Below are positions 36,235 through 63,415 of a stretch of 64,000 nucleotides of DNA, in pieces. Position numbers and translations under genes: made by a program. The stretch is from Verrucomicrobiota bacterium (GTDB taxonomy: Bacteria; Verrucomicrobiota; Verrucomicrobiia; Chthoniobacterales; UBA10450): contig JBEEHV010000005.1 of NCBI GenBank assembly GCA_041167585.1, forward strand, positions 13,883 to 77,882, given 5' to 3'. The notes below the pieces were generated by a model, which made no database searches, was not told the DNA's origin, and saw only the letters and a list, made by a program, of their open reading frames with translations. Every line of letters starts with the position of its first letter. Positions within the stretch are counted from its first letter, which is position 1.

Positions 36235-36351
36235 GTTAGCGAGCGCTACGACCTTGCCGCGTCACGCGCGTGTGGCTGCAAGTGGAAGGTCGTAGCTACT
36301 CTCAGCGGGGAAACAGAGCGGGGCGCGGTTAGCTGCATCGCTTGGTTAGAT
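36235..36351 (-). repeat. distal, atypical attC-like site of array A
   Basis: Minus-strand read: ATCTAAC-CAAGCGATGCAGC... central 11-bp stem (36245-36255 / 36286-36296) ...GCGCTCGCTAAC. The R'' arm is typical, but the R' end reads CTCGCTAAC in place of CTCGTTAGG. Confidence 0.45.
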
Positions 36352-36369
36352 GGTTGGTCGTGAGACAAA

Positions 36370-37005
36370 CTACTTCTCCGGGTTTTCTAGTGCGCTCGGC
36401 CCGCGCTTTGCGACCGCCACGCCAAGGCCGGCTAGCCCAACGCTGAAGATCCCGTTGGCGATGATGGCCCCCCACGCATGAAGCGGACTCGCCTGAAGAA
36501 GCGGGATTAAGACCAACCCGGCCGCGGCTGCGATTGCAGCCCACCGCGGAAGAATCCCGGTTCGCCAGACACTGATCGCCAGCAGCAGCCATCCCAGCGC
36601 AAACACTCCGGCGGCCGAAGCGAAACCGATACTGGTCAACGGGTGCTTATCGATCGCACTGAGTGCCGCGAGGTTAATCCCAGCGAGCGGGTAAAAAACA
36701 AAAACATCGGTGAATTCCACTGCAAAGAGGAGGCAGCTTCCGATAAAAGCAAAAACAAATGAGACGGCACCAAACCGGCCAGCGCGATCCCTCTGCATTA
36801 GGTGCACTCCGAGCGACCCGAAGATCAACATCAACGCGGCCAGGCCCGAGAGTGACTGCCGAAACAAAAATAGACCCGTTGTCTCAGGAGGAATGCCTAA
36901 GCTGCGACTGTGAAACATCAGCGGCGCGATGATAGCATTGACGGCTAGCGTCAAAAGGGCGCCACACAACAACCCGATGCCGCAAGGTCGTAGAAAGGTC
37001 TTCAT
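36370..37005 (-). CDS. cassette ORF: polytopic membrane protein, function unknown
   Basis: About 6 hydrophobic helices. ATG at 37005 (MKTFLRPCGIGLLCGALL). The ORF is open up to 37089. Confidence 0.65.
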   Translation of the reverse strand: MKTFLRPCGIGLLCGALLTLAVNAIIAPLMFHSRSLGIPPETTGLFLFRQSLSGLAALMLIFGSLGVHLMQRDRAGRFGAVSFVFAFIGSCLLFAVEFTDVFVFYPLAGINLAALSAIDKHPLTSIGFASAAGVFALGWLLLAISVWRTGILPRWAAIAAAAGLVLIPLLQASPLHAWGAIIANGIFSVGLAGLGVAVAKRGPSALENPEK

Positions 37006-37143
37006 GATCGCCAGTTTGGGTGTGAGCTGGCGCGGGCGGCCCGTTTCAGCATGCATCATCACCACCACTGAGATGCAGCCATCGGCCAATCCGGATTCAA
37101 GTAAATGAGCAGAAGCGCGCCTCGTGCAGACGGGGCTTTGAGC

Positions 37144-37210
37144 ATCTAACGAGACACAAGATGAGCGACTCCGAAAGCTTTCGGAGTTCGCTGCATCGCC
37201 TGGTTAGGCC
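37144..37210 (-). repeat. attC site (67 bp, short form)
   Basis: Minus-strand read: GCCTAAC-CAGGCGATGCAGCGAACTCCGAAAGC/GCTTTCGGAGTCGCTCATCTTGTGTCTC-GTTAGAT. It is a near-perfect hairpin with a single unpaired A in GCGA[A]CTCC. Confidence 0.75.
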
Positions 37211-37311
37211 TTGTTGTCGCCATCATCTGCTCGACCCCAGCGCCACGTTGCGGTTGCCTTCGTCCGAGTGGTTGGCCGCGCTCCTCCGCCAGCGGCATGC
37301 GGACCTTCATG

Positions 37312-37722
37312 TCACGGCGAGGCCGGCGGCAGGAACTTGTTCATCTTCTGCGCCACCTCCATCGACCCGCCGACCTTGAGCTTACGGGTCAGGAACGCCT
37401 TGGCGCCGTTGAGATCGCCGTTGGCGAGTTGGACGAAGTCGGCCCCCTTCATCTTGTACGTCACCGTCGGAGCCGCCGCGGCGCCCGGCTGGACGGCGAT
37501 GTTGCCGTCGGCGATCGTCACCGTCCAGGTGCCGGCGCCTTCCAGGTCGTACACGACGGTCGCGTGCACGCCTCTCGCCTGTGCCGGGATGAAGCGGGCC
37601 TTGATCGTATCGAAGTATTCCTGGCAGCTCTCGATGCGTCGCATCTTCGGACTAGCGGCACAGCAAAGGCTGGCCACGGCGACGGAGATGAGCAGTGCGA
37701 GTAGGGTTGTTGTTCTTGTCAT
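37312..37722 (-). CDS. cassette ORF: secreted SCP2 sterol/lipid-binding domain protein
   Basis: Signal peptide: MTRTTTLLALLISVAVASLCCAAS. SCP2 C-terminal pattern: ADFVQLANGDLNGAKAFLTRKLKVGGSMEVAQKMNKF. Confidence 0.8.
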   Translation of the reverse strand: MTRTTTLLALLISVAVASLCCAASPKMRRIESCQEYFDTIKARFIPAQARGVHATVVYDLEGAGTWTVTIADGNIAVQPGAAAAPTVTYKMKGADFVQLANGDLNGAKAFLTRKLKVGGSMEVAQKMNKFLPPASP

Positions 37723-37805
37723 GACGAGTATCCAGCGCCTGGGATTACGAGCCGGTCAAGTCGCGAAAACACGTAAATTCCTGATCGTGCGACATCTGGC
37801 TATCG

Positions 37806-37941
37806 ACCTAACGAGAATGGAACGGACTGGCAAGCCGTGACATAGACTTCAAGCCCGCAGGGTAAACGAGTCGCGCGAGTGCATCAACAAGATCAGCGAC
37901 TCAGAAAGCTTTGGGAGTTCGCTGCATCGCCTGGTTAGGTC
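37806..37941 (-). repeat. attC site (long form, about 136 bp, with an internal degenerate R'-like box at about 37862)
   Basis: Minus-strand read: ACCTAAC-CAGGCGATGCAGCGAACTCCCAAAGCTTTCTGAGTCGCTGATCTTGTTGATG...CTCGTTTACC...GTCCGTTCCATTCTC-GTTAGGT. Confidence 0.65.
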
Positions 37942-38566
37942 TTTGTGGCTCTACGCGATGTGTCAACCACATGAACAACTCGCGAGGCTCGTAGCTAAAT
38001 CGTATCGAAATAGATGGTGCTGTCCATTCACGCACAATGTGCGGCGAGCGACCAGTCTCGGTGTACGTCGGCTTGATTCTGTGATCCGCAAACCAGTCAT
38101 TCACTCGTTGCGTAAGTTCTGGGTGATCTTTGCTCGCGGTGTAAACGATCTCTTCAGATACGAGCCGATCGCGGCGCAGCCACTGTTCGTACTCTATGCT
38201 CCTCGGGCGTGCGAGGACTGGATACGAGACAAGAAGTGGTGTGAACGGCTGCCGAAAGCTTCGCATATCCGAAGATCGCCTGCTCCATGTCGCGCTGTCG
38301 CTGTGATATCGAAAGCGACAGGTGGTGCACGTGGGTAGAACTGTCGGAGAGCCCGGTTCGATTTCGCAGCCGCCGAGAATGAAATCAAGATTCTTAACGT
38401 GGCGCTCGATCTCTTTGGGATCCATCACGGACAAGCCGTAGTGAATCGGAACGTCTTTGAGAGTGGCATGCCCGTTCGGGCATCGTTTGAGGTCGGCGCT
38501 CTTGACCTCAGCCGAGGCAATAATCGGAAGGAGCAGGAGTAATGGGGCAAGTGCGCTGCGCATCAT
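37901..38566 (-). CDS. cassette ORF: secreted hypothetical protein (221 aa); last 12 codons lie inside the attC
   Basis: Signal peptide: MMRSALAPLLLLLPIIASA. The C-terminal ...RPNQAMQRTPKAF is the translation of CCTAACCAGGCGATGCAGCGAACTCCCAAAGCTTTCTGA. Confidence 0.7.
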   Translation of the reverse strand: MMRSALAPLLLLLPIIASAEVKSADLKRCPNGHATLKDVPIHYGLSVMDPKEIERHVKNLDFILGGCEIEPGSPTVLPTCTTCRFRYHSDSATWSRRSSDMRSFRQPFTPLLVSYPVLARPRSIEYEQWLRRDRLVSEEIVYTASKDHPELTQRVNDWFADHRIKPTYTETGRSPHIVREWTAPSISIRFSYEPRELFMWLTHRVEPQRPNQAMQRTPKAF

Positions 38567-38568
38567 AG

Positions 38569-38601
38569 ACCTAACGATAATAAGATGAGCATGGTTAGAC
38601 C
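38569..38601 (-). repeat. attC remnant (33 bp; both core boxes, centre deleted)
   Basis: Plus-strand read: ACCTAACGATAATAAGATGAGC|ATGGTTAGACC. It sits between the stop of 38604..38942 and the start of 37901..38566. Confidence 0.5.
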
Positions 38602-38603
38602 TC

Positions 38604-38942
38604 TCACCTAAAATTTTCCAAAAAGCCGTCGATGCCGCCGGAGATCAGAAACCAAACTTTGATGACTTTGCCGTTGCGGAGGCGAACTTCATATACGTCA
38701 TATCTCTTCTTGCCGGGCGGAACTACTAGCGCTTGGCTGAGAACCTTCGACTTCGGATATTTCTGCGCGATCCAAGCGTAGGCGGATTGCTCGACCCCAA
38801 CGACTAGAACTGCCTTTTCAGGGGAGCTGCCGTCACCACCATAGTAGCCCGGTTTAGTGTTGCTATAGTCGGGTCCGCTGTCAGCCCTTGCGCAGCCGAT
38901 CGCGGAGCAACAAATCAACGCAAGAATGAGTAGTGTGCGCAT
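38604..38942 (-). CDS. cassette ORF: small lipoprotein (112 aa)
   Basis: ATG at 38942 gives MRTLLILALICCSAIGCA, a lipobox-type signal. The upstream TTG-extended part of the ORF is the translated attC. Confidence 0.7.
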   Translation of the reverse strand: MRTLLILALICCSAIGCARADSGPDYSNTKPGYYGGDGSSPEKAVLVVGVEQSAYAWIAQKYPKSKVLSQALVVPPGKKRYDVYEVRLRNGKVIKVWFLISGGIDGFLENFR

Positions 38943-38944
38943 AG

Positions 38945-39105
38945 GTCTAACGAGACCAAGACGAGCGACGGCTGGCGGGGGCGTGCTTTCGCTTCGGTTT
39001 TCTACTTTCAATTTTCACATTTCGCCTTCCACTGATGCCAGTCCTTTGCTGTCCTTTGGCCCGCTCAGGACCTTGAGCAATCGAAACGGCATCGCTTGGT
39101 CGGTC
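38945..39105 (-). repeat. attC-like site, long and degenerate at the R'' end
   Basis: The R' end GTCTAACGAGACCAAGACGAGCGACGGC (plus-strand read) is typical. The other end reads GCATCGCTTGGTCGGTC instead of GCATCGCCTGGTTAGGTC. Confidence 0.45.
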
Positions 39106-39120
39106 CCTTTCGCGCAGCCG

Positions 39121-39576
39121 TTATCTGTCGCGAAACCCCATGATGCTAGGGCCAGCCTTCTCCATCCCGTTGTCGTTGCCTAGCGTGGACCCTCGGCCAG
39201 TGAAATTGATCGGTATGTTGTAAAAAGGTCCTGGTCGGCCTGGTCTTGCGCGCCATTCTCGTAAGGCCTCGACGCTGGCATGATCAAGTATCTTGCTGCC
39301 CGAAGTGTCTGCCAGCTCGACTCGAGCGACCGTCCCGTCCGCGTTTAGAGTCACACGGCAGACGGCCCGCCCTTCGATGCGCCTCGACCCGGTGCTCGTG
39401 CGCACCCAAGCGTCTATAGGGTAGCGGGGCGGCGGCATGTAGGTAAACACATCGCTAAGGCGCTTCAAGGTATCAGCTGGAGCGGTTGCCACGATAATGA
39501 GCAGCATGAGAGAGATGACGGCCCGCTGCAAATGGCCCCATTTGGAATGTATCGCGTGTTTGGTGGCGTCTTGCAT
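39121..39576 (-). CDS. cassette ORF: TonB C-terminal-domain-like protein with N-terminal anchor
   Basis: ATG 39576 (MQDATKHAIH..AVISLMLLIIVA). C-terminal YPIDAWVRT..GRAVCRVTLNADGTVARVELADTSGSKILDHASVEALREWRARP resembles TonB_C. Confidence 0.65.
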   Translation of the reverse strand: MQDATKHAIHSKWGHLQRAVISLMLLIIVATAPADTLKRLSDVFTYMPPPRYPIDAWVRTSTGSRRIEGRAVCRVTLNADGTVARVELADTSGSKILDHASVEALREWRARPGRPGPFYNIPINFTGRGSTLGNDNGMEKAGPSIMGFRDR

Positions 39577-39578
39577 AA

Positions 39579-39628
39579 GCCTAACTACAATTAGACGAAA
39601 CGAAGTTTCGTCTACTTCGGCGTTGTTC
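39579..39628 (-). repeat. proximal short attC-like site / R' box of the first cassette of array A
   Basis: Plus-strand read: GCCTAAC-TACAAT-TAGACGAAAC-GAA-GTTTCGTCTA-CTTCGGC-GTTGTTC. The R' box and a 10-bp stem are clear; the partner box GTTGTTC is poor. Confidence 0.4.
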
Positions 39629-39747
39629 GACGGAAGTGCTCTGGTAAAGCGAAAGGGGAACCATTGCCCATTCGTAACCGCAGCTCTCCAGGGTCGGCAA
39701 GCCCAAACTCCTCGATCGGGTGCGCGCACGATTAGCAGCCGCGACCC

Positions 39748-40398
39748 TCACAGCTCGATAAGATGGTGGCGGATGGCGTACCGAACCAGGCCCGCCATCG
39801 ACTTCGCGCCTAGCTTGCGCATGAGCGTGGCCCGATGAGTTTCCACTGTGCGAATTTTCAGGCGAAGCGCCGCGGCCACCTCTTTGTTGCTGCTGCCTTG
39901 AGCGAGCAGGCGCACGATTTCCCGTTCGCGCGTGGTCAGCCTTAGGTCAGCCCGGCTCTGTTGTTTTCGGGCGGGCTGCAGGAATTTTGTGAAAAGCACG
40001 TCTGATGCTTCGGCGGTGAAGAAAGGCTTGTGTTCCGCTAACGACTTGATGGCAGTAATCAGATGCCGGTTGGCGTCAGTCTTTTCAATGTAGCTCTTGG
40101 CGCCTGCTTCAAATACTTCCTCGACCAGGTCCTTCGCGCTATGGCCGCTGAACGCCAGGACTTCCGTGTTCGGGAGCTCTTTTCTGATCTGGCCGATCGC
40201 GGCTAGTCCATCCAGTCCCGGCATCGTGAGATCAAACACCACCACATCGGGCTTCGTTTTGAGGGCGCGCTCGACTGCTTCATGTCCGTTCGTGGCCACA
40301 CCGCAAACTTCGAGATCGGGTTGACGTGCGATCAAGGCGCGGACTCCCTCCACCACCACATCATGATCGTCCGCGATTAATACTCTTACTGCCCGCAT
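39748..40398 (-). CDS. NarL/LuxR-family response regulator (orphan; paralog of 27697..28380)
   Basis: REC: VLIADDHDVVVEGV, VVVFDLTMPGLDG. HTH: LTTREREIVRLLAQGSSNKEVAAALRLKIRTVETHR. Confidence 0.9.
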   Translation of the reverse strand: MRAVRVLIADDHDVVVEGVRALIARQPDLEVCGVATNGHEAVERALKTKPDVVVFDLTMPGLDGLAAIGQIRKELPNTEVLAFSGHSAKDLVEEVFEAGAKSYIEKTDANRHLITAIKSLAEHKPFFTAEASDVLFTKFLQPARKQQSRADLRLTTREREIVRLLAQGSSNKEVAAALRLKIRTVETHRATLMRKLGAKSMAGLVRYAIRHHLIEL

Positions 40399-40506
40399 CT
40401 TGAAAATTGAATCTACCTGAGTCCATGCTGGCTAAGGGTTGGGGTGAAATTCTGGATTCCTGCCAGGTGCTGCGGACGTTCTTGGTTCGCCATTAACTTG
40501 AAGCGG

Positions 40507-40773
40507 TCATCCCTGAGCATGAGCCAGGCGCAGGGCCATAAGAGGTGAGGTTACGGGCGGCAATTCCAGCATGGTCACTCTCGCTTCTACCCCTTCGAGC
40601 CACGCATAGCAGCGCCGGGCCGCGACGAAGCCGAAGAGGTCGAACACTTCGACCACGCCCTCCCACAACTCCTCGCCGAAAATCTCGCACACCGCCGCCG
40701 AGCGGATGTGCTCGGCGCGACATTGGTAATTGAGTTCGACGGCCTCTTTAAGATCTTCCAAGGGCTGATTCAT
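40507..40773 (-). CDS. small conserved-looking hypothetical protein (88 aa)
   Basis: ATG start with balanced composition. It lies between the FN3 gene and the LuxR regulator on the same strand. No motif was recognised. Confidence 0.55.
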   Translation of the reverse strand: MNQPLEDLKEAVELNYQCRAEHIRSAAVCEIFGEELWEGVVEVFDLFGFVAARRCYAWLEGVEARVTMLELPPVTSPLMALRLAHAQG

Positions 40774-40847
40774 CAGGTCCGGTTTCGGAGAGGGAGAGGA
40801 CGGCGGCTTACCCCAGAATTCTGGCCGCCGTCCCCGTTTTTTCGCAG

Positions 40848-41789
40848 CTACGCAGTGAAAGTCGATTTGTTGCTCGCCGGGCCTTCGCCGCGCGAGTTAA
40901 CGCCCACCACCCACACCATGTAAGTCACCCCAGGCGTGAGCGGAGCAAGACCCACCACCGAGACTGTGGTCGTGGTGGAGACACCGGCGTCCGTCTCGGG
41001 CCCGCCGGCCGGTTGACGCTTGGCGCGAAGGAAAGTGGCGTGCGCGGGCATGGCCGGAATGGTCAGCTCTCGCGTCCCGGCATTGAAGGGTGCGGCGCCA
41101 GGCGCATCGGGCAGCGGCTGCGGTTGCGCGTCGCCCGGGGCGCGTTTCGGTTGCATGTTGATCTTGGCCAGTTCCAGGGTCCGCTCGCCGTCGTCACTGG
41201 CGCTGCAATAGAACAGCCGCACCCGTGAGTTGGCGTCCTCCAGCTTCTCGCGCGAATCGTCCCGAGCCTGGATGAGCGTCTGTCGACTTCCGCCGGTGGC
41301 CAGCAGCGAGGCGGCGTCGAATACGGCCAGCCAGTTCGCGATCCGCCCGGCCAATGAGGCCGGATACTTGCCGGCAGTGGGAACACTCGGGTCGGCCGTG
41401 GCGCTGGCGGCGAGATTCGCGAGCGATTCCGTGCGGGTAATATCGAGATCGCCGATCTTGCCGCCCGTCCAGCCGTAGGCCGTGTAAGCCTGAAGGCGCT
41501 CGGCGTCGGTGATATCGTCGCTGGCTACGGCGCCGATGGCGTTGAACCCGTTGCGGAGGAGCTCGCCCAGCCGCTCGAGCGCTTGCTTGCGTTGCTCCGA
41601 CGCGCCCACGGTAGCGCCCTCCATAATGGTCGCGGCCGCGTTTTTGCCTTTGGTATCGGCCAGCCGGGTCGTGACCAGCGGGTTGAGGGTGGCGCTGAGT
41701 TTGAAGGGATCAGCGGCCGTGCGGGCCGTGTCTACCTGGAGAATGAGTTCTGCCGTTTCGATAGCTTCGAGGGTTCTGCGATCTGCCAT
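40848..41789 (-). CDS. hypothetical protein with helical N-terminal region and C-terminal fibronectin type III-like domain
   Basis: The last roughly 90 aa (LTIPAMPAHATFLRAKRQ...VSVVGLAPLTPGVTYMVWVVGVNSRGEGPAS) fit an FN3 beta-sandwich. There is no signal peptide. Confidence 0.7.
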   Translation of the reverse strand: MADRRTLEAIETAELILQVDTARTAADPFKLSATLNPLVTTRLADTKGKNAAATIMEGATVGASEQRKQALERLGELLRNGFNAIGAVASDDITDAERLQAYTAYGWTGGKIGDLDITRTESLANLAASATADPSVPTAGKYPASLAGRIANWLAVFDAASLLATGGSRQTLIQARDDSREKLEDANSRVRLFYCSASDDGERTLELAKINMQPKRAPGDAQPQPLPDAPGAAPFNAGTRELTIPAMPAHATFLRAKRQPAGGPETDAGVSTTTTVSVVGLAPLTPGVTYMVWVVGVNSRGEGPASNKSTFTA

Positions 41790-42057
41790 GTGATAATCCT
41801 TTCTGGGATTGTTTGGGGTTAGGGGTGCGTTGAGGGGCTCTACTGGTAACTACGATGTCTGCCCGGCTAAGTTGGGAAATTTTTTCGCGGCCACTCTTGA
41901 GCCCCACGGATGCCGACGCGATCGGCGCCGCTGCTGGAATGATGACGCAGCTGCTTTTTCCCCAATCCGCTGCTGCTGGAAAAAGAAAACAACTGGCGTG
42001 AACCCTTCCTCGTTCCACTCCCGCCAGCCCCGCGCTGCGGCGCTACGTTGGGCGCGT

Positions 42058-42483
42058 TCCTGGAACGATCTGCGCGCTCCAGTTTCGCGCGATGCTCTTT
42101 CCTGACGCGAGACCAGGGGTCGCGCAGGGAGTCGTCCGCGCTCCTGCAATTACGTCCCAGCTTCGTCAAGACGCGCGGGTTGCTGCACTCCGGACATCCG
42201 GGAATGCGTCCGACGATTTACCGCGCCGATTCTGGATGTCAGGAAAGGAGCAAAACCTTTTCCCCGGCCGAGTCTGGACGTCCGGAAACCGGCCGGGAAA
42301 CTTCCCGCGGCGACTCCAGACGTGCCGACAGGAGTACCGGATTTTCGTTTCCGCGTTCCTGATATCGATACAGGAGCAAAACTTTCCCCCGCGCCAGTCT
42401 CGGACGTCAGTGCAGGAGCACGGAACGTTGTCTGGCGACCATCCACGAGGGAAAACCGCCTTTTTACGTTAGACGTTACCTAT
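42058..42483. repeat. array of about 10 degenerate tandem units with 42-bp phasing, each headed by a TCYGGA-YR-TCMGGA box
   Basis: Box starts: 42058, 42100, 42142, 42189, 42231, 42273, 42315, 42357, 42398, 42442. Spacings: 42, 42, 47, 42, 42, 42, 42, 41, 44. Best boxes: TCCGGACATCCGGG, TCTGGATGTCAGGA, TCTGGACGTCCGGA. An inner AGGAGCAAAAC..TTTCCCC motif recurs. Confidence 0.75.
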
Positions 42484-42813
42484 TTATCGCCTCGCGCTGG
42501 CTCCCATCAAACGTTCCCAGTCCCCGAGGTCGCCGCCATATCCGAGATCGCAGGCTTTCTGCCACGTAAAACGAGCCTCGCGCTCGTGTCGTTTTCCACT
42601 TTTGGTGTCGGGCATGTTCCGGTATTGCCGGCGGGCGATGAAGATATGGACTGCCAGCGGGTCGTGCTCCGCTCGCATTTCCTCGACCACTCGTTCCACC
42701 TCGTTGATCGCCGCGGTAAGCCGGTCCAGGGCGTTTTCGAGCTGATTGGAACGCATTGTGTTCAGTTGAACATCTGCTAGTTTGGAAGTCAATTTGGTCT
42801 GCGCATTGCCCAT
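42484..42813 (-). CDS. hypothetical protein (109 aa; alternative start 42756)
   Basis: ATG 42813 (MGNAQTKLTS...) or ATG 42756 (MRSNQLENALDRL...). It has a coiled N-terminus and then RFTWQKACDLGYGGDLGDWERLM. It is divergent from the 42840 operon. The upstream part of the ORF is Cys/Leu-rich and was rejected. Confidence 0.5.
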   Translation of the reverse strand: MGNAQTKLTSKLADVQLNTMRSNQLENALDRLTAAINEVERVVEEMRAEHDPLAVHIFIARRQYRNMPDTKSGKRHEREARFTWQKACDLGYGGDLGDWERLMGASARR

Positions 42814-42839
42814 CACCGGAGATGGGCATACAGAAACAT

Positions 42840-43037
42840 ATGGCAAAAGACACAGGCAAAGGATCACGCAAAGGGGCGGTGAAAGCCCGCACGCAATCGA
42901 ACAACCCGAAGACAAAAGACTGGACCAAACGGAACGAAACGCCCGGCAGCAAAAAGCGCGGCGAGTTCATGAACGTGAAGAAAGACGGCAAGCCCTTCAA
43001 AGGCGTCGCTAAAGAGCCGGATAAACGGAGAAAATGA
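42840..43037 (+). CDS. small basic protein (65 aa), first gene of the TIR-like operon
   Basis: MAKDTGKGSRKGAVKARTQSNNPKTKDWTKRNETPGSKKRGEFMNVKKDGKPFKGVAKEPDKRRK. The stop is 1 nt before the next ATG. It resembles a widespread small K/G-rich protein type, from memory and unverified. Confidence 0.55.
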   Translation: MAKDTGKGSRKGAVKARTQSNNPKTKDWTKRNETPGSKKRGEFMNVKKDGKPFKGVAKEPDKRRK

Positions 43038-43038
43038 T

Positions 43039-44151
43039 ATGGCGAAGAAACCCGAAAAAGAACCCTCAAAACGTCGTAACTTTCCGTTCCACACACTGGA
43101 AGACGCGTTACCCGTCGCGCAAAAGGTCGCCGACGAAAGGGGTGGTCAACCATTCAAACGCCTTTTGCTTTCCGATGCTCTCGGAATCAAGCCAAGCAGC
43201 AGCAACTATCGCGATTTGCTAAGTTCCTCTTTCAAATACGGTCTGACCGACGGTACTGAAAAAGCCTCAGAGATTCTTCTTACTGAGCTTGGCGCACGAG
43301 CGACGCAAACAACATCGCCGACCGACCGGATGAAGGCTTTACGTGAGGCCGCAATAAAGCCCGACGTCTTCAAACGGTTCTATACCGCATATCGAGAGCG
43401 GAAGTTGCCCTCGACGGAAATGTTCCCGAAGATCCTCAACGCCGATTTTGGAGTGCCGTTGGAGCATGCAGGCGAGTGCGCCCGTTTCATAGAGCAGAAC
43501 GGTAGATTCGTTCAGATCGTCCGCGATATCGGCGGGTCTCCCCATGTCCTGTTAGATTTGGAAGCCGTTACAGACACCACTACTCAATCAAACGGGAAAG
43601 AAGACGAGCCGGAGGTGATGCCGGATACGCCTCCCCTTGATGCTGATGTTCCGCACCCCCCAGCCCCAGGCGCGTCACCATCCACACCGCCCCCACCGGA
43701 AAATGACAGTGCTCCGAAGCCGATTTTCATTGGACACGGGAAAGACAAGGTGCCCCTCCAAAAGCTTCAGGCGATTCTCACCACCTTCCGCATTCCGCAC
43801 CGAGTGACTGTAGATGAAGCGAACCTCGGCCGGCCTATCTCGCAGAAGGTGAAAGACACGATGATGCAATGCGGGTCGGCCATACTCATTTTCACCCGCG
43901 ATGAGAGATTTTTTGACGAGAATCAGCAAGAAATCTGGCGTCCCTCAGAGAATGTTGTCCACGAGCTTGGAGCGGCTTCATTCGCTTACGGAGATCGGAT
44001 AATGATTTTCAAAGAGAAGGGGCTGCATTTTCCCACGAACTTCCAGAACATCGGTTACATCGAATTCGAAGGACAAAACCTCGAGTCAAAGACCGCAGAC
44101 CTGTTGAAAGAGCTTATTGGTTTCGGCCTTGTAAAAATCACACCGGCTTAA
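43039..44151 (+). CDS. two-domain protein: uncharacterised helical (wHTH-like) N-domain, Pro-rich linker, C-terminal TIR-like nucleotide-binding domain (CAP12/Pycsar-effector, COG4271-type)
   Basis: The C-terminal 140 aa are PIFIGHGKDKVPLQKLQAILTTF...GSAILIFTRDE...RPSENVVHELGAASFAYGDRIMIFKEKGLHFPTNFQNIGYIEFE. This follows the FIxHGxD / hydrophobic-T.DD / R.NVxxELG / G..Y pattern of bacterial TIR-like effector domains. GGAG lies 9 nt upstream of the ATG. Confidence 0.8.
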   Translation: MAKKPEKEPSKRRNFPFHTLEDALPVAQKVADERGGQPFKRLLLSDALGIKPSSSNYRDLLSSSFKYGLTDGTEKASEILLTELGARATQTTSPTDRMKALREAAIKPDVFKRFYTAYRERKLPSTEMFPKILNADFGVPLEHAGECARFIEQNGRFVQIVRDIGGSPHVLLDLEAVTDTTTQSNGKEDEPEVMPDTPPLDADVPHPPAPGASPSTPPPPENDSAPKPIFIGHGKDKVPLQKLQAILTTFRIPHRVTVDEANLGRPISQKVKDTMMQCGSAILIFTRDERFFDENQQEIWRPSENVVHELGAASFAYGDRIMIFKEKGLHFPTNFQNIGYIEFEGQNLESKTADLLKELIGFGLVKITPA

Positions 44152-44177
44152 CCCGGTCTCCTCAATAGCCCCGCCCA

Positions 44178-45014
44178 GTGATGAGACGCCGCGAGTATCA
44201 TGATGGTGATGCGGTCGTGAACTTCATGGATTGCAGGTTCGAGAGTGACCTGCGAAAAGCAAAACTTCCAACCTTCCCTGACCAGCGGAAGCTAAAGACA
44301 TCGCAAGACGCGGCTCTTTGGATGTTGTGGGTGATGAGAGATTACTTCGGACATCACTCTCCAATGTACGCATCAGAATTGGCTCATTTGCTGGAACTAC
44401 GGGGGATAGCGGTCCGGGAAGATCAGCTTGAGCAGCTGCTAATGCGTGCAGGTAAGAAGATAATGAGAAAACGGTATGATGAAACGTCGACCGAGCTTGC
44501 ATATATGATCGCCGAAAAAGGGGTCGCATTTCTACAAGCGAAGTACTCGGCGACGGGAGTGCGAGCAATTATTATCGATGGCACACAGCCGTGGCGCGAC
44601 CGGCATGTTACCCTACCAACAATCGCTGAGCAGCTTTCCGGTCGGATCTGTGTCGTCGATAAGTATTACGGCCGCGGAACACTTGCGGTGTTATACCACT
44701 TCAGGCATGGGTCGCCGCTTCAGTTCCTCACCGCCCGAACGAGCGAGACGGCAGGCGCATTCGCGCGAGAACTAAGGGATTTCAAAAGAGAGAGTCCTAC
44801 GTTGGAGGTGCGCATTTTTCCGGACTCCGGCGAGTTACACGACCGCTATATCATCTCCGAGCACGCTTTGATTATCGTTGGCCATGGAATCAAAGACATC
44901 GGAACGAAAGAATCATTCCTGATTTTTCTCGAAGGCGACAGCACTTCGGAGTTGCGACAAACACTTCTCGAGAAGTTCAACCATCGATGGTCACAGTCGT
45001 ACGTTCCAACATAA
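44178..45014 (+). CDS. hypothetical protein with C-terminal PLD-like (MIT_C-type HDR...GxGxKD) module
   Basis: 278 aa (GTG 44178 or ATG 44181), 26 nt after the TIR-like gene. The C-terminus is LEVRIFPDSGELHDRYIISEHALIIVGHGIKDIGTKESFLIFL. The N-terminal half is wHTH-like (ASELAHLLELRGIAVREDQLEQLL). The domain call is tentative. Confidence 0.75.
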   Translation: MMRRREYHDGDAVVNFMDCRFESDLRKAKLPTFPDQRKLKTSQDAALWMLWVMRDYFGHHSPMYASELAHLLELRGIAVREDQLEQLLMRAGKKIMRKRYDETSTELAYMIAEKGVAFLQAKYSATGVRAIIIDGTQPWRDRHVTLPTIAEQLSGRICVVDKYYGRGTLAVLYHFRHGSPLQFLTARTSETAGAFARELRDFKRESPTLEVRIFPDSGELHDRYIISEHALIIVGHGIKDIGTKESFLIFLEGDSTSELRQTLLEKFNHRWSQSYVPT

Positions 45015-45188
45015 GTGAAACCCGCCAATTCTTGCAGCTGGGTCTGCGAAGCTCGTCACTCGCTGATCATTAAGTCCAGTGGGATTCGCCTCGGCTTATT
45101 TCCGCGGAGAATTGCATCCCTCTAGCTTTGTGATGAGCATGCTCGTGGAGGGCTTGCATTCAGACCTCGGCGGCAGCACCATGGCCGA

Positions 45189-45968
45189 ATGAAAACGTCC
45201 CCCCGCCTCGCTGGGATCATCCCCTTCACCTGCATTTTATTCCTCATCGCGCTCGCCCTGACAACGCCTTGCGTAACGGCAGGTGTCCCACAACCGAAGC
45301 TCTACGCGGCGCTCCTGGCCAAGGCCCGCGCGGGAACGCTCCGCGTCGTGCCCGGTGAAGCCCCGGCACCGCGCCCGTTGGCGATGGCTGCGGGAAAGCG
45401 CGCCGGTTCCGGCTCTGAGATTTTTCCGCCCACTTCTTATCGCGCGGCGGCGAAGACTTCGTTCGAATCGGGGCCGGTCGAAACGTTCGCCACACTCGAC
45501 GCGTTGTTCACGCCGCTCCCTGCGGATAGCAAGATGTCGAAGGATTTCCCGAAGCTGGTGGTGAAGAAAGGGAATGTAAGTCCCCGGGTCCCGTTGGAAA
45601 AACGGAACGTGAAGATACCGGCTTTCATCTATTGGGTCGCGCCAGAAAGCGATCACGATTTCCACGTGATCCTGGGGAGCACGTCGGAATTGACCTCGAC
45701 CACCAGATTCATGAACAGCGAGATTTCGGGCCTGCCTTCGGCCAACCCAACCAAGAGTCCCTTCCCGCAACGCCGCAGCGATATCCGGGCGATGCTCAAG
45801 AAGCACGAGAACGTTGACGGTCTTTTTGTGAAGCCGGTTCCCGTTAGCGTGACCGGCACGCTTCTGTGGGACGGCGAGCATCGCGCGCCCCACAACGTCG
45901 GCCCCGAGGGACTAAGGCCGACCAAGGCCTGGGAGATTCACCCGATCAAGCTTTTGGCGGAACGTTAG
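45189..45968 (+). CDS. secreted hypothetical protein (259 aa)
   Basis: Signal or anchor: MKTSPRLAGIIPFTCILFLIALALTTPCVTA. Its TAG stop lies inside the GTTAGCGAGC end of the distal attC remnant of array B. Confidence 0.7.
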   Translation: MKTSPRLAGIIPFTCILFLIALALTTPCVTAGVPQPKLYAALLAKARAGTLRVVPGEAPAPRPLAMAAGKRAGSGSEIFPPTSYRAAAKTSFESGPVETFATLDALFTPLPADSKMSKDFPKLVVKKGNVSPRVPLEKRNVKIPAFIYWVAPESDHDFHVILGSTSELTSTTRFMNSEISGLPSANPTKSPFPQRRSDIRAMLKKHENVDGLFVKPVPVSVTGTLLWDGEHRAPHNVGPEGLRPTKAWEIHPIKLLAER

Positions 45969-45998
45969 CGAGCCGTTCGCTGCATCGCCTGGTTAGAC
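45964..45998 (-). repeat. distal truncated attC (R''-L'' arm only), ends in GTTAGCGAGC like the distal site of array A
   Basis: Minus-strand read: GTCTAAC-CAGGCGATGCAGCGAACGGCTCGCTAAC. Confidence 0.5.
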
Positions 45999-46463
45999 GT
46001 TCCGCTGAGTCCACCATGAAACGATCTCGTGATCTGCGGCCATTTCTCTGCCGTGCTCCGCCCACCAATCCACGAGAAGCCATCGCACAGCATCGCCCAT
46101 CGAACACTGCGGGTGCGGAAACAAGGTCGTGCTAGCGGTCGTGAGCGTGTGAATGAACCAAGCAGCAGTCTCGGCTCGCTTGCGTAAGACTGAGAGGGCT
46201 TCCAGGCTGAAACCGTCCAAATCCACCTCGCCAGAAAGCGCGATGAGCGCGATGGCCGCCTCGACCTCCGGCAGGTAAGGCTTCTCTGCCTCCTCGATGC
46301 GCGAGATCAGGTCGTCGGAATCATCAACGTCTGATTCGTCGAACGTGTAGACACTAGGCGCTTCTCGCTTCTTCAGGTTGAAGATAAGAATGCCGTCGAA
46401 GTAGTGTTCGAGATCATACCACTGCCGAATCTGTTCGGACATGTTGTAGAAGGACTCGGACAT
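45993..46463 (-). CDS. cassette ORF: acidic hypothetical protein (156 aa)
   Basis: ATG 46463 (MSESFYNMSEQIRQWYDLEHYF...). It has a D/E-rich stretch, FDESDVDDSDDLISRIEEAE. The TAA stop is the TAA of the GTCTAAC box. Confidence 0.65.
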   Translation of the reverse strand: MSESFYNMSEQIRQWYDLEHYFDGILIFNLKKREAPSVYTFDESDVDDSDDLISRIEEAEKPYLPEVEAAIALIALSGEVDLDGFSLEALSVLRKRAETAAWFIHTLTTASTTLFPHPQCSMGDAVRWLLVDWWAEHGREMAADHEIVSWWTQRNV

Positions 46464-46478
46464 GCGCGTGGCTGTTAC

Positions 46479-46601
46479 GTCTAACGAGAACAAGATGGGT
46501 GACGGCGGACGAGACCGCCTGTCGCTCGGAGTGGATGTGAGGGAGTCATCTCAATAGCGGGCGCTCAACGGTCCGCCGTTCGCTCCATCGCCTGGTTAGG
46601 T
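46479..46601 (-). repeat. attC site (123 bp)
   Basis: Minus-strand read: ACCTAAC-CAGGCGATGGAGCGAACGGCGGACCG...CGTCCGCCGTCACCCATCTTGTTCTC-GTTAGAC. Confidence 0.8.
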
Positions 46602-47114
46602 CTGGTTGATCGGAGTGCCATTTACGTCGTAGATGCGCAGACGTGTCGGGATGCGCGCAGCTACTTCCGGCTGGCTGCCCACCTCAACAACCCACCGCTC
46701 GCCGCCAGCGACGATCTGCGCACAAAAGATGTCGACCTGGAGCTGGAGTTTCGACCCGAGTTGGTTGCAGTGAACTGTCGAAGTAGGTGGTGCCACTGTG
46801 AACTGAAAGCGCTCGAGTGCCTCGCGGGCGCTCTGCGAAACAATTTCCTCGCGACCCTCGTGCAAGAACGCACATCGCAATGCGTAGCAATCACGCCCAC
46901 TCAGGAAGACGTGGCGCTCACGATCTGGACCGATCTCGCGGATGTACTGAGGGCCGACGAAGCGATCAAACCACGCGACGTAACGATTCTGCGAGCCTGC
47001 CGCGGAATCTTCGAGCCAGCCGCAAATGTCCGGAACCACTAGAGCCGTGCTGAGAGCCGCGTACCAGTTCTGCTGCGCGACGGCTGCCGTTACTGATTGG
47101 AGTAGGTGTTGCAT
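46596..47114 (-). CDS. cassette ORF: hypothetical protein with Rx4H (HEPN-like) motif (172 aa)
   Basis: NWYAALSTALVVPDICGWLE ... LSGRDCYALRCAFLHEG, where RCAFLH is an R-x4-H motif. Predicted helical. The TAA stop is inside the ACCTAAC box. Confidence 0.7.
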   Translation of the reverse strand: MQHLLQSVTAAVAQQNWYAALSTALVVPDICGWLEDSAAGSQNRYVAWFDRFVGPQYIREIGPDRERHVFLSGRDCYALRCAFLHEGREEIVSQSAREALERFQFTVAPPTSTVHCNQLGSKLQLQVDIFCAQIVAGGERWVVEVGSQPEVAARIPTRLRIYDVNGTPINQT

Positions 47115-47121
47115 GTGAAAG

Positions 47122-47245
47122 CCCTAACGAGAACAAGATGAGCGACGGCGCACGAGAGCGCGTGTCGCTCGGAGTGAAAGTGTGGAAGCCATCTCAAAAG
47201 TTGAGCGCACAGCGGTCCGCCGTTCGCTCCATCGCATGGTTAGGC
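47122..47245 (-). repeat. attC site (124 bp)
   Basis: Minus-strand read: GCCTAAC-CATGCGATGGAGCGAACGGCGGACCG...GTGCGCCGTCGCTCATCTTGTTCTC-GTTAGGG. The arms GAGCGA[A]CGGCG and CGCCGTCGCTC pair with one bulged A. Confidence 0.8.
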
Positions 47246-47728
47246 CTTGTTGGGTGGAAGAGCAAAGCGTTGAGGCGCACTGCCGTCTTTGAAGTGGAGC
47301 AAGACAAAATGGTCAGACTCATGCCACTCCCACGTAAACTCGCCCTGGTAGTAAAGCGGGCTTGTGGTGAGGCGAATAGCTTTCTGGTCCGCGGCGCGAA
47401 AGAGAAAAACATGGAAGCCGTACTGATCCTTGCGCCACTCGGACTGGAAGTCGATATCCGCGTAGGCGGCGAGATCCTTGCTCGGCGACAGTGAAGAGGA
47501 CACGTAATACGAAACGCGTTGGTCGCGAAAATATAAGTAGTCGCCATGATAGACACTCTCAAATCCGCCGGTCATATACTCTGCGAGTCCGACGCGGCGA
47601 AAGCCGCCACCGAGGTCTTTGGTGTCCTCGACGACCGGGTGACCTGCGGTTGGTATGCGCGAGCTGTCCGTGCACTGCGCTAATAACAGAGCTGCAGAGA
47701 TCAGTGACATCGGGAGCGACGGCAGCAT
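47240..47728 (-). CDS. cassette ORF: probable lipoprotein (162 aa)
   Basis: ATG 47728 gives MLPSLPMSLISAALLLAQC. The TAA stop is inside the GCCTAAC box. The ORF is open up to 47776 through the R' half-site. Confidence 0.65.
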   Translation of the reverse strand: MLPSLPMSLISAALLLAQCTDSSRIPTAGHPVVEDTKDLGGGFRRVGLAEYMTGGFESVYHGDYLYFRDQRVSYYVSSSLSPSKDLAAYADIDFQSEWRKDQYGFHVFLFRAADQKAIRLTTSPLYYQGEFTWEWHESDHFVLLHFKDGSAPQRFALPPNKA

Positions 47729-47730
47729 GG

Positions 47731-47755
47731 GCCTAACGAGAAATGGACGTCCTAG
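47731..47755 (-). repeat. proximal R' half-site of array B (first recombination point; no recognisable R'' partner or attI/intI upstream)
   Basis: Minus-strand read: GGACGTCCATTTCTC-GTTAGGC, then CC-ATG. It closely resembles the R' end of the 37806 site (GTCCGTTCCATTCTC-GTTAGGT). Confidence 0.5.
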
Positions 47756-47904
47756 TGACGGGAAAAAAGGCGTCATTCGGCCGCCTATTTCTGGGCTTTG
47801 GTGGGGAGAATGCCTGAAAAGGCTTCACGATTCAGTGATAACCTCCGCGTCAGACCCGGACAAGCTGAAACTCGGTCCCGGCGTGATCCGCGGAGCGCTA
47901 GAAC

Positions 47905-52341: not shown

Positions 52342-55300
52342 TCACGCAAGCGCGGCGTAAACTTTGTCGATTTCTCGCTCGAGCTCCGCGAATGCTTCCT
52401 TTGTTCCGCGGAGATCATTCGTTCGGCCGCGCGTTTCCAGGCTCAGCGCGCAGGCGTGCGCGGCTGCCGCACCGAAACATCCCAATGAGCTGAGCAGCTT
52501 ATGCGCGCTAGTGCTGAGAGCAGCTCCGTCTCCCTTCTCGACGGCGTCGCGGATCGCCCCGACGAGCAACGGGGCGCTGTCGCGAAAAATCGCGACCAGT
52601 TCGGCGGCCAATTCTTCATCGCCGTCGCACTGTTCCACCAACTTCCCAGGTGCGTGGATGACCTGCTCCATGCTTTCAGGATCGGGCTCTGCGGTTTGAG
52701 CACCGCGGAGCGAGCGAAGTAGATCTTCCTTCAGCAGCGGCTTGGAAACATAATCGTCCATTCCCGCAGCGAGGCAACGCTCCCGGTCCCCTGCCATCGC
52801 GTGCGCGGTCATTGCCACGATCCGGATATGGCCGCCGGTCGTCTCTTCGATTTCGCGAATGCAGCGCGTCGCTTCGAATCCGTCCATCAGTGGCATCTGC
52901 ATGTCCATCAAAATGAGATCGAAGGCTCCGTCGGAAAAAGCGTCGACTGCCTCACGGCCGGTGGAGGCGTGGACAAGGACGTGGCCTTGTTTTTCCAAAA
53001 TGCCCGTGGCGACGGCGCGATTAACAAGATTGTCTTCCGCCACCAGGATGCGCAGAGCCGACGCGGGAAGCGCATCGAGTGGAGCCGGCATTTCCGGAGC
53101 GCGAACTATCAGTTTTTCCGAATTATGACTGACGGCACCGAGTATGGCGTCGAGCAATTCGGATTGCGTGACCGGTTTCGTCAGATAGCTCGCGATGCCT
53201 AACGAGCGGCAACGTGCGGCTGTGCCGGCCGGCATCGCAGATGACAGCATCATTACCGTCGCGCCCGCGAGCTCCAGTCGATGTTGGATTCTCTCCGCCA
53301 GGGCGAAACCATCCATTTCCGGCATGACGGCATCGAGGAGGACGAGCTGATAAGCGAAGCCGCCCTCGGCCGCGCGCAACATTTCTTCGAAGGCCGCCTC
53401 GCCCGACGCCACCACCGTCGGAGACATCCGCCAGTTCGACAACATCTCCTGGAGGATGCGGCCGTGCACGGCGTTATCGTCCACGACCAGCGCGCGCATT
53501 GCGACCAGATCATCGAGTTCGCCACATTCCGGGACTAGCACCTGCCTGTCCTGGACTTTCAAAACCGTCGTGAAATGGAACGTCGTGCCTTCACCCACGG
53601 TGCTTTCGAGCCAGATCCGGCCCCGCATTTTTTGGATCAACTGCGAAGCGATGGAAAGCCCGAGCCCGGTGCCGCCATGCGTCCGCGTCGTCGAACCGTC
53701 CCCTTGCGAAAATGGTTCGAAAATCGTGTTACGCTTTTCAACGGGGATGCCAATGCCCGTGTCGGTGACGGAAAACTGCAGTTCGGTTTCCCCGTTGGTC
53801 CCGGGCCGATTGGTCACGTTTATGACCACCTCGCCCCGCTCGGTGAACTTGATCGCGTTGGCCGTGAGATTGATCAGGATCTGGCGCAGCCGCAACGGAT
53901 CGCCGACGAAGTGATCGGGCACGTCGGAGGAAATATCCGCGACGAGTTCAAGACCTTTTTGGTCGGCGCGCAATCCGAGCGGCTTGAGGACGGCGCTGAT
54001 GCATTCGCGCAAACTGAAGTCAATCGCCTCGAGCTGCAGCATGCCCGCCTCGATCTTGGAAAAATCGAGGATGTCGTTAATCAAAACGAGCAACGAGTGC
54101 GCCGAGCTTTTCACCATCCCGAGGTATTCGCGCTGATCGCGATTCAGCTCGGTTTCAAGGGCGAGATCGGTCATGCCAATGATGCCGTTCATCGGCGTGC
54201 GAATTTCGTGGCTCATGTTCGCTAGAAACTCGCTCTTGGCCCGGTTGGCGGCTTCCGCGGCTTCCTTTGCCGCGGCCAGCTCCAAGTTGGTTCGGGAGAT
54301 CTCGAGTTCTGACAACTTCAGGTCATGGATATCCGTGCAGGTGCCGAACCATTTCAGGATGTGGCCGGTGGCATCCGTCTGGGGAACGCCGCGGATTAAC
54401 CACCAGCGGTATTCTCCATCCGCGCGGCGCAGGCGGCATTCGAGTGAGTAAGTTCCGGCGGTCGCCGTCGCGTGCTGCCAGGCGTCCCAGGCGCGCTGTC
54501 GGTCATTGGGATGGAAAGGCTTGTTCCACCCGTGACCCAGGCTTTCTTCGAGGGAAAGCCCGGTGTAATCCATCCACTGCTGGCTGAAATACGTGTTCCA
54601 GCCATCGGGTCGGGTGATCCAGACGATTTGCGGCATTGCTTCGGCCAGAGTGCGGAATTCGGCTTCGCTTTTCCGCAATGCTTCTTCCGCGCGCTTGCGT
54701 TCGGTGATGTCCACGCAAGCGCCAGTCATGTAGAGCGACTGGCCGGCGTCGTCGAAAAAAGTTTTCCCTTTGTCATCCAGCCAGCGAAGGCTCCCGTCGG
54801 GCCGCAGAATGCGAAACTCCATGTCGAAATCCGCCCCTTCCTGTGCGCAGCGCTGGCAGCGTTCGATCACTTTAGGGCGATCATCGGGATGCACCGCGGC
54901 GATGAACGTCTCAAGCGAACATATCGTCTGTCCAGGAGGCAGGCCGAACAAAGCATCCAGCGAATCATCCCAACTCAACTCATTGGAGCGGATATCCCAC
55001 CGGAAAGTGCCGGTGCCGGAGGCCGAGAGTGCGACTCGCAACCGTTCGTCGCTCACCCGCAGCGCTTTCTCCACCCGTTTGCGCTCGGTGATGTCGCGGG
55101 CGATTTTCGACACTCCGATGAGCCGGCCCGCAGCATCGCGTACCGGTGAAACGCTGAGTGACACCTCAATCCGCCGCCCGTCTTTTGCGACGCGCACGGT
55201 TTCGAAGTGCTCGATGCGTTCCTCCCGGCGCAGGCGCTCCAGGAATTCCGCCTCCTCCCCCCGATGATCGGGCGGAATGATCATCGCGCTCGGCTGGCCA

Positions 55301-58300: not shown

Positions 58301-59031
58301 GCCTCTTGGTGGAAGCTCTCCAACAATTGGGCGCGCCATCGTCGCATGCCGCGCGCTGCCCCGAACCACGCCAAAAGCGATATCCCGCTGGCCACTAGAC
58401 CGGCGATGGTTACGAGCCAATCACTGCGGTGGTCGTCCTGCAGCCTTTCATCAAACTCGCGCCTGAGTTGCTTGACCAGCGAGGTTATTCCTTCAACGAA
58501 GATCTCTTTCTGCGTTTCGTACTCGGCGCTGAACAATGCGGCTTGCGCCTCCTCCTTGTGGCCGGCGCGAACCAAAGTAAAAGCGCGATTTTCCATCTCC
58601 ACCAACTTGAGGTTTGCCTCATCCGTTTTTGTCGCGGCTTGGACGTCGGAGGGGCCGGTGCCCATTCTTCTTGTTTCCTTGATTGCGGCATCCAGTTGCG
58701 GTTCGACACGGCGATACCGCTCTTCCCACTGTAAATCTCCCGTTGCCGCCGCCATCCGGGCGGACATGCTCAACACCTCGTCCAGATGGATGATGATGCC
58801 TCGGAGTTCCTCGATTCGCGAGAGCCGGTCTGTGAAGCTTTTGGCATCGCGGATATCGTCGAAAATAATCCAGCCAAACCCGGCGAAAGCTACGATCGTA
58901 AACAGACAGGCGATGGTGAGAAGCCGGATCGGAAAACGCACGGCGGTTATCGCTTTGTCCTCCGCGATATTCTTTTGGGTTGGCACGTTCTTTTGCGCTG
59001 ATCTGCCGGGCCACTCAGGAGCTTGTTGCAC
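52342..59031 (-). CDS. 2229-aa hybrid sensor histidine kinase: 2 TM + periplasmic sensor, about 9 PAS/PAC, 1 GAF, HisKA, HATPase_c, 2 REC, HPt
   Basis: TM helices: [21 protein letters not shown] and [21 protein letters not shown]. Repeated PAS-PAC units end in ..DITERK(R/Q)AE. GAF: [21 protein letters not shown]-box: [15 protein letters not shown] boxes: [19 protein letters not shown]: [13 protein letters not shown] and [13 protein letters not shown]. HPt: [13 protein letters not shown]. Confidence 0.9.
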
Positions 59032-60973: not shown

Positions 60974-61055
60974 GCCAGGGTGGCGAAATTGGCAGACGCG
61001 CCAGACTTAGGATCTGGTGGAGCAATCCTTAGGGGTTCGAGTCCCCTCCCTGGTA
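60974..61055 (+). tRNA. tRNA-Leu (anticodon UAG), class II with long variable arm
   Basis: Hand fold: acceptor GCCAGGG/CCCTGGT (G1-U72 wobble); D arm GCG-AAATTGGCAGA-CGC; anticodon stem CCAGA/TCTGG with loop CTTAGGA; variable arm GGAGCAATCC; T arm AGGGG-TTCGAGT-CCCCT; discriminator A. CCA is not encoded. Confidence 0.85.
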
Positions 61056-61130
61056 CTAACTGTTCTTCCGGACGCGCATAGCTCCGACCTCTTCTGCGCG
61101 GCGCGGCCCGATGGAGGACGCGCCGAGCGC

Positions 61131-63367: not shown

Positions 63368-63415
63368 GCCGCCGTTGTAGGGGGTTTTTCCTTAACGACA
63401 AGAAAATTTTCGGCC

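Follow-up and report, generated by a model that had tools for sequence, protein, structure and literature searches.

Between two arrays of attC-type repeats in the genome of a Verrucomicrobiota bacterium (contig JBEEHV010000005.1), three genes follow one another with hardly any space between them, and they raise the question of whether so compact a group is one defence system or several genes that have come to lie together. The stretch of DNA analysed here, the window, is 64,000 nucleotides (nt) long, and all coordinates refer to it unless another locus is named. Gene 1 encodes a small basic protein, gene 2 a protein ending in a TIR-like domain and gene 3 a winged-helix protein with a PLD domain of the MIT_C type; an initial annotation of this DNA had proposed the trio as a new defence module. 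We find no two of the three genes together in about 137 loci that carry their relatives. The reading we prefer, with a probability of roughly 0.55, is that of a co-acquired patch of three independently distributed genes, likely co-transcribed but working separately, which include two predicted single-protein effectors, a TIR-like NADase and an orphan winged-helix-PLD nuclease.

Co-occurrence and defence-family matches

The distribution of the genes was surveyed with tblastn (E 1e-2 to 1e-3) in flanks of 3-5 kb around their relatives. No relative of gene 1 or gene 3 was found at any of 16 gene-2 loci (14 from genomes and 2 from metagenomes, with full-length matches at 50-70% identity). Relatives of gene 1 or gene 2 were likewise missing from all 86 gene-3 loci, and relatives of gene 2 or gene 3 from all 35 gene-1 loci. 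The initial annotation had itself held that a lack of co-occurrence elsewhere would speak against a single new module, and no pair occurs in the ~137 loci. Because the genes are not found together elsewhere, the locus is regarded as a pile-up of separate candidate defence genes and not as a three-gene system. Gene-2 homologs have different neighbours at different loci, among them MazF- and HicB-like genes (recognised from the translations of their open reading frames (ORFs)), a second TIR-like ORF and a DUF3606 gene.

The combination had also been thought to match no named system, a view that has to be given up, as each gene matches a PADLOC family of phage defence candidates (PDC): PDC-S38 for gene 1, PDC-S35 for gene 2 and PDC-S05 for gene 3. 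The match of gene 1 (E 1.5e-21) covers its full length, with residues 1-59 aligned to positions 1-56 of a profile of 57. Five PDC-S35 models match residues 221-363 of gene 2 with the C-terminal part of the profile and leave the N-terminal 220 residues unmatched. Two PDC-S05 models match residues 141-260 of gene 3 with positions 182-297 of 306 (E 4.5e-11), which is again not full length, and the match of a gene-3 homolog (P0010) is partial in the same manner. Thus neither the double winged helix joined to a TIR-like domain nor the winged helix joined to an MIT_C-type PLD domain is covered over its full length by current defence models. The PDC models go back to genes located inside BREX, DISARM and type I restriction-modification systems ("guilt by embedding") and stand for candidate single genes (Payne et al., bioRxiv 10.1101/2024.01.29.577857). 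One PDC-S05 representative, which carried a RhuM domain, shielded E. coli from T7, T5 and T4 (bioRxiv 10.1101/2024.09.26.614923). The supplements of the PADLOC-related papers contain no text on PDC-S05, S35 or S38.

Table 1. Positions of the three genes, their domains, the surrounding features and the operons of gene-3 relatives in other genomes
Feature	Position	Strand	Remarks
Gene 1	42840-43037	+	65 amino acids (aa), Lys/Arg-rich ORF
Gene 2	43039-44151	+	370-aa ORF
Gene 2 N-terminal domain, aa 1-178	43039-43572	+	two winged-helix-like units
Gene 2 Pro-rich disordered linker, aa 182-223	43582-43707	+	pLDDT (predicted score in the local distance difference test) <50; length and sequence vary among homologs
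Gene 2 TIR-like domain, aa 224-370	43708-44151	+	PF10137; predicted NAD+ hydrolase, Glu309
Gene 3	44178-45014	+	278 aa from GTG at 44178; ATG at 44181 gives the 277-aa database protein
Gene 3 winged-helix N-half, aa 1-122	44178-44546	+	from AlphaFold model and TrmBL2 alignment
Gene 3 MIT_C-type PLD domain, aa 123-277	44547-45014	+	predicted phosphodiesterase or DNA nuclease
Low-GC patch	~42800-45150		coincides with the three genes; G+C 0.47-0.55 inside, 0.57-0.69 in both flanks
Divergent upstream ORF, 109 aa	42484-42813	-	no Pfam or PADLOC match; G+C 0.57, flank-like
Left attC-like array	36309-39100		R' ends 36351, 37209, 37940 and a degenerate copy at 38947-39100
Right attC-like array	45955-47250		sites 45955-46002, 46476-46606, 47119-47250
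Partner and gene-3-relative operons	L001:4290-5843, L004:4145-5807, L005:200-1769, most of L021-L100

Domain structure and relatives of genes 2 and 3

The TIR-like nature of gene 2, called earlier from sequence motifs, is borne out by three lines of evidence. PF10137, the TIR domain of CAP12 and Pycsar effectors, matches residues 229-344 (E 1.3e-14; 54.7 bits against a cut-off of 24.7) and is matched by all 42 homologs. Foldseek, run on the whole protein, returned matches dominated by TIR domains, with TIR-STING 9lmq the best (6.5e-5), followed by SARM1, PdTIR and SpbK; the matches to TIR-STING, SARM1 and PdTIR have a probability of 1.0. Glu309 of the ELG motif is invariant in the 42 homologs. 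A profile alignment sets PSENVVHELG of gene 2 against PRDNVVFEFG of SfSTING; it comes from a weak Cap12 match (E 0.1), the sole yield of a profile search of solved structures with the gene-2 family, and is used for aligning the motif only. The Glu of NVVFEFG in SfSTING, to which Glu309 is aligned, is what we take to be the catalytic residue, and gene 2 is predicted to be an NAD+ hydrolase using Glu309. The motifs quoted for gene 2 in the initial annotation (IFIGHGKD, ILIFTRDE, RPSENVVHELG and NIGYIEFE) are all found, as is ELHDRYIISEHALIIVGHGIKDIG, quoted for gene 3.

The N-terminal domain of gene 2 is modelled by AlphaFold with a pLDDT of 92-98 over residues 11-170 as two helix-helix-helix-hairpin units, and from this model it is presumed to be a sensor or DNA-binding part. 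Pfam gives it weak matches only (DUF7226 in 15/42 homologs, AAA_assoc_C in 5/42). The gene-2 family comprises more than 1187 clusters at 90% clustering, the top 120 of which match over their full length at 55-70% identity, and the N-terminal domain is carried by 1476 representative clusters at 50% clustering. Among ten of these representatives that were checked, Pfam finds PF10137 in four; of the other six, most are by reading fragments or end in a divergent TIR-like part, and one of them, P0393, ends in a short C-terminus of a different kind. Since the N-terminal domain is coupled to a TIR-like domain in four of ten by Pfam and in most of the rest by reading, the double winged helix and the TIR-like domain belong together as one coherent architecture within a single protein. 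Relatives of gene 2 are complete and stand alone in six phyla; none of gene 2 or gene 3 was found on viral contigs.

Membership of gene 2 in CBASS, Pycsar or Thoeris was considered and ruled out, as no cyclase or ThsA is among the ORFs tested (~31.7-59 kb) and the protein has no signal-binding domain. The absence of neighbouring cyclase, CD-NTase, STING, SAVED and ThsA genes noted earlier holds as well, with no such PADLOC match among the 20 ORFs tested in that region. Two loci of gene-2 homologs show features of their own. Ahead of the closest homolog (L106:3820-5176, 70% identity), with a gap of 1 nt, lies an unrelated DUF3606 gene encoding a 59-aa protein that matches the C-terminal end of PADLOC PDC-M03B. 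Upstream there is also a divergent TrmB-family gene, and a 213-aa ORF without a Pfam match lies downstream on the other strand. In a metagenome-assembled genome of the Gammaproteobacteria, a distant second TIR-like ORF (L015:5146-5916; 24% identity to the TIR-like domain of gene 2) directly follows the gene-2 homolog.

Gene 3 had been described as a winged-helix-like N-half joined to an MIT_C-type PLD module, and structure prediction agrees. The AlphaFold model has a pLDDT of 91.8, and over its whole length the best Foldseek match is the archaeal chromatin protein TrmBL2, which likewise combines a winged helix with a PLD-like domain (E 3e-9). Its C-terminal half matches FAM83, MITD1 (2ymb, 8.5e-6), Zucchini (9e-6), NucT (1.2e-5), Nuc (2.6e-5) and PLD3. 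Invariant in 46 homologs are D160, Y163-G164, H220-D221-R222-Y223 and G234-H-G-I-K-D239. In the model, D160 comes just after strand 156-159 and HDR just ahead of strand 223-225, in agreement with the definition of such sites by an Asp after strand 2 and an HDR before strand 5 (PMC12065111). At E values up to 1 gene 3 has no Pfam match, PF16565 (MIT_C) and PF01978 (TrmB) included. Weak MIT_C matches appear in 20/46 of its relatives (best E 1.3e-3), and TrmB is not matched among them either. The family consists of at least 78 clusters, and a profile search of solved structures with it returned chance matches only. A call as IS630 transposase was rejected, with an NCBIfam score of 23.8 bits against a cut-off of 100 and a fold that is PLD, not RNase H.

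The site has a characterised counterpart in Druantia type III, where MITD1-like PLD domains of DruE form a nuclease site. Changing Asp1740, Asp1917 or Arg1918 (the DR of DRY) of DruE to Ala abolishes defence, and D1740A also loses DNA degradation in vitro (bioRxiv 10.64898/2026.05.13.724313). An Asp and HDR site is further described for MIT_C, Menshen NsnC PB-PLD1 and the C-termini of BrxL, with a function that is proposed (PMC12065111). As Asp160 and HDRY of gene 3 make up the same kind of site as the nuclease site of DruE, a DNA-directed phosphodiesterase or nuclease activity is predicted for gene 3, and by this analogy it is best read as a winged-helix-guided PLD-type nuclease.

The resemblance to TrmBL2 admits a different, non-immune explanation, in which gene 3 would be a TrmB-like DNA-binding regulator or chromatin protein with a ligand-binding PLD-like domain, gene 2 a nucleotide-binding regulator and gene 1 a stress or nucleoid-associated protein. 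The whole-length structural match fits this explanation, and MITD1, the founding MIT_C protein, is without known catalytic activity as cited in PMC12065111; however, the invariant Asp, HDRY and GHGIKD of gene 3 match the catalytic site of DruE, and the TIR-like domain of gene 2 retains its catalytic Glu. The surroundings of relatives point both ways. Genes of an ordinary kind, a sigma factor and ClpB among them, often stand beside gene-3 relatives, and a gene-1 relative lies amid the stress-type genes DUF892 and DUF3175 (L108), the gene-1 family being very conserved; toxin-antitoxin genes, on the other hand, occur near relatives as well. All three genes match models built from defence-embedded genes, and the trio has a foreign composition and lies in a cassette array (see below). 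We consider a non-immune role doubtful on balance and keep to three separate candidate defence genes.

In other genomes gene 3 is seldom alone. One to three small winged-helix-like genes (110-165 aa) lie directly upstream of its relatives in nearly all loci: of 71 loci whose upstream DNA is long enough to tell, at least 58 have them, and similar small ORFs are seen by eye in all but two of the other 13. The closest relatives of gene 3 (57-61% identity) carry these partner genes, none of which was found anywhere in the window. The partner genes fall into four families without a Pfam or PADLOC family, and hhalign relates u1 to u2 (98%) and u2 to a third family (98.5%) and finds u2b unrelated. 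Homology of the N-terminal domain of gene 2 to the partner proteins was rejected, with an hhalign probability of at most 18%. This conserved operon around gene-3 relatives is apparently undescribed, and its recurrence suggests that partner genes and gene 3 may form an undescribed multi-gene system in other genomes. A bolder version would see in them an undescribed immune system built on an MIT_C-type PLD nuclease. At the present locus a winged-helix-TIR fusion would have moved into the partner position and formed a hybrid that couples DNA cleavage to NAD+ depletion, or to a signal made by the TIR domain, under one sensor, with gene 1 as adaptor; we regard this version as a long shot.

The partner genes also bear on whether the trio is a composite, lineage-specific system, in which gene 2 would replace the winged-helix partners of gene 3, the TIR-like and PLD domains would act jointly (for example one as sensor and the other as effector, or both as effectors answering to a single trigger) and gene 1 would be a regulator or adaptor. 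Almost no other member of its family lacks the small upstream winged-helix genes as gene 3 does, and gene 2, which takes their position, likewise starts with winged-helix units; yet the profile-profile comparison above gives no sign of kinship between the two. The genes are on the same strand and as tightly packed as the initial annotation had stated, with gaps of 1 nt between genes 1 and 2 and 26 nt between genes 2 and 3. A GGAG motif lies 10 nt ahead of the start of gene 2, and a single low-GC patch covers exactly the trio. In one other locus (L101) a gene-1 relative also leads a tight operon of defence-type genes, followed by DUF4238 and a methyltransferase-endonuclease fusion. Against these points stand the complete lack of co-occurrence in the survey, the complete and solitary gene-2 relatives of six phyla and the closest gene-2 homolog, which is preceded by another kind of small gene and is without a gene-3 relative. 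A composite system thus appears unlikely, and we continue to read the three genes as independently distributed.

Gene 1, base composition and the attC-type arrays

Besides its PDC-S38 match, gene 1 matches phrog_12550 (8e-12). Its family comprises at least 229 clusters of proteins of 65-68 aa, with a mean column identity of 75% in an alignment of 34 members, and the sources named are Verrucomicrobiota, Chthoniobacterales and Acidobacteriota. Relatives with 42-60% identity are also carried by 28 IMG/VR viral contigs (L110-L137), several of them no more than a few kb from an end of the contig. Most gene-1 relatives are solitary, without a tightly linked downstream gene, and this bears on another explanation of the locus, in which genes 1 and 2 would be a toxin-antitoxin-like pair with gene 1 neutralising a TIR-like toxin and gene 3 as unrelated cargo. 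The 1-nt gap would couple genes 1 and 2 translationally, and the gene-2 homolog of L106 also has a small protein gene exactly 1 nt upstream; however, the small upstream genes of the two cases are unrelated, and no small ORF ends near the start of gene 2 in the loci read (L007-L011 and L015-L018). We judge a toxin-antitoxin pair very improbable and return to separate genes.

With a G+C content of 0.524 against a window mean of 0.581, the trio has the lowest G+C of all 2175-nt windows; 0.24% of these are as low or lower, and the value lies ~3.5 standard deviations under the mean. The hand-counted contrast of the initial annotation (0.43-0.45 against 0.65) was right in its direction and overstated in its magnitude. 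As the low-GC patch coincides with the trio, it was probably acquired as one block, and the divergent ORF upstream of gene 1 is probably outside it. A promoter scan found no promoter-like site, and terminator-like sites occur only at chance rate. An Rfam scan of 36-48 kb matched zero RNA families. Upstream of gene 1, the region 42135-42424 contains a weak repeat with a period of 42 nt (three copies at 42199-42320, 61-63% identity) and a 26-nt inverted repeat (42135-42160 and 42399-42424, 85% complementary), and no ORF or Rfam family explains it.

The attC-type repeat occurs in six strong copies, of which none is expected by chance (nhmmer E 1e-10 to 1e-12); the R' ends of the three on the right are at 45998, 46601 and 47245. 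Together with the degenerate copy this makes four sites to the left of the genes and three to the right, and the location between attC arrays claimed by the initial annotation is thereby confirmed. Each of the right-array sites overlaps the stop codon of a minus-strand cassette ORF (45993-46493, 46596-47114 and 47240-47776), an arrangement like that of integron cassettes. When seven attC-type stretches were folded and compared with shuffled controls, three folded better than the shuffles: 47119-47250 (z -3.5), whose CTAAC and GTTAG ends are paired, 46476-46606 (z -3.1) and 37095-37214 (z -3.0). The fold of 36240-36356 is weaker (z -2.2), and 37835-37945, 38940-39080 and 45885-46003 fold no better than shuffles. 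No integrase was matched by Pfam among ten flanking ORFs (0/10), the cassette ORFs at 45993-47776 being outside that search.

A search for attC-type sites found none within 39100-45955 and none directly after gene 3. The trio is part of this attC-bounded segment of 6.85 kb, which has at least 8 ORFs on both strands and also encodes a TonB_C protein, a response regulator, an fn3 protein and others. Since 39100-45955 is free of attC sites, the genes belong to a multi-ORF segment and probably not to a standard one-gene cassette, and their orientation is opposite to that of the neighbouring cassette ORFs.

Elsewhere in the window, the 55 nt at the 3' end of a tRNA-Leu gene (60974-61056) recur 2.4 kb away at 96% identity (63432-63486), and the two have the appearance of att sites belonging to a small integrated element; the same region has internal duplications at 61707-62042 and 62734-63762. 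At 23198-23481, within the ORF at 23081-24952, a 21-nt unit encoding a 7-aa repeat occurs nine times in tandem. A 62-nt dispersed repeat (1147-1208 and 13665-13726, 89% identity) contains GTCATTCTGAGCG(C/A)AGCGAAGAATCTC and may be a small repeated extragenic element. On the minus strand, 52342-59031 is a 2229-aa ORF with several internally repeated segments (families D3, D10 and D18), probably a multi-domain sensor protein.

Proposed roles and comparison with known systems

Under the preferred reading, a block of ~2.3 kb would have been gained horizontally within a large segment that attC sites delimit in a chromosomal cassette array, and the three genes would be co-transcribed here, each acting separately. 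Gene 2 would be a stand-alone effector whose double winged-helix domain senses a trigger or binds nucleic acid. Its TIR-like domain would then be activated, probably via oligomerisation as in other TIR effectors, and would hydrolyse NAD+ via Glu309, arresting the infected cell. Gene 3 would be an orphan DNA-directed phosphodiesterase or nuclease, separated from the small winged-helix partners of its family, and gene 1 a conserved small basic protein that is usually solitary and also found on phage or prophage contigs.

Several points weigh against this reading. The spacing of 1 and 26 nt and the uniform composition would also fit a functional unit. Without its usual partners gene 3 may be non-functional alone or dependent on gene 2. 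The PDC-S35 and PDC-S05 matches are confined to C-terminal domains, and the PDC-S05 protein with the RhuM domain that was tested is of another architecture. For the three families no activity or phage phenotype is on record. A column identity of 75% makes gene 1 look more like a housekeeping or stress gene than a fast-evolving defence gene. Finally, the 20 other ORFs in and around the array that were tested are without a meaningful PADLOC match, so that the region is not a dense defence island.

Should the predicted activities be borne out, gene 2 would stand for single-protein TIR-like effectors of soil bacteria that form a very large family (1476 clusters at 50% identity) and whose sensor domain is of a kind not seen in CBASS, Pycsar or Thoeris. 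Gene 3 would be the MIT_C-type PLD nuclease, which does the cutting in Druantia, in a minimal form guided by a winged helix. Genes packed tightly within a cassette array need not form a system, and at this locus the packing would come from separate modules that have accumulated. For a new multi-gene system, the conserved operon that gene-3 relatives have in other genomes offers the better lead.

The known systems and families resemble the locus in parts. Likeness to the PADLOC candidates extends over all of gene 1 for PDC-S38 and is limited to the C-terminal domains of genes 2 and 3 for PDC-S35 and PDC-S05, the N-terminal halves being different. Chromosomal integron cassettes are documented as stores of defence genes (bioRxiv 10.1101/2024.07.02.601686). 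Like the integron defence genes of Darracq et al., the block lies between attC-type arrays and has single-ORF cassettes as neighbours; unlike their cassettes, it belongs to a two-strand, multi-gene segment of 6.85 kb with no attC after gene 3. Gene 2 shares the PF10137 TIR-like family and the aligned conserved Glu with Cap12 (TIR-STING, CBASS) and PycTIR (Pycsar), and its best structural matches are TIR-STING proteins, but in place of the STING, SAVED, SLOG or cyclic-nucleotide-binding sensors of CBASS and Pycsar effectors it has an N-terminal double winged helix. Gene 3 has the same two-domain architecture as TrmB and TrmBL2, although with 12-14% identity, a TM-score of ~0.35 and no Pfam TrmB match the resemblance is structural only. 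With DruE, NsnC, BrxL and MITD1 it shares the PLD fold, the Asp after strand 2 and the HDR(Y) before strand 5; it differs in being a small winged-helix protein that has just one PLD domain, and not a helicase, AAA+ or PIN-like fusion.

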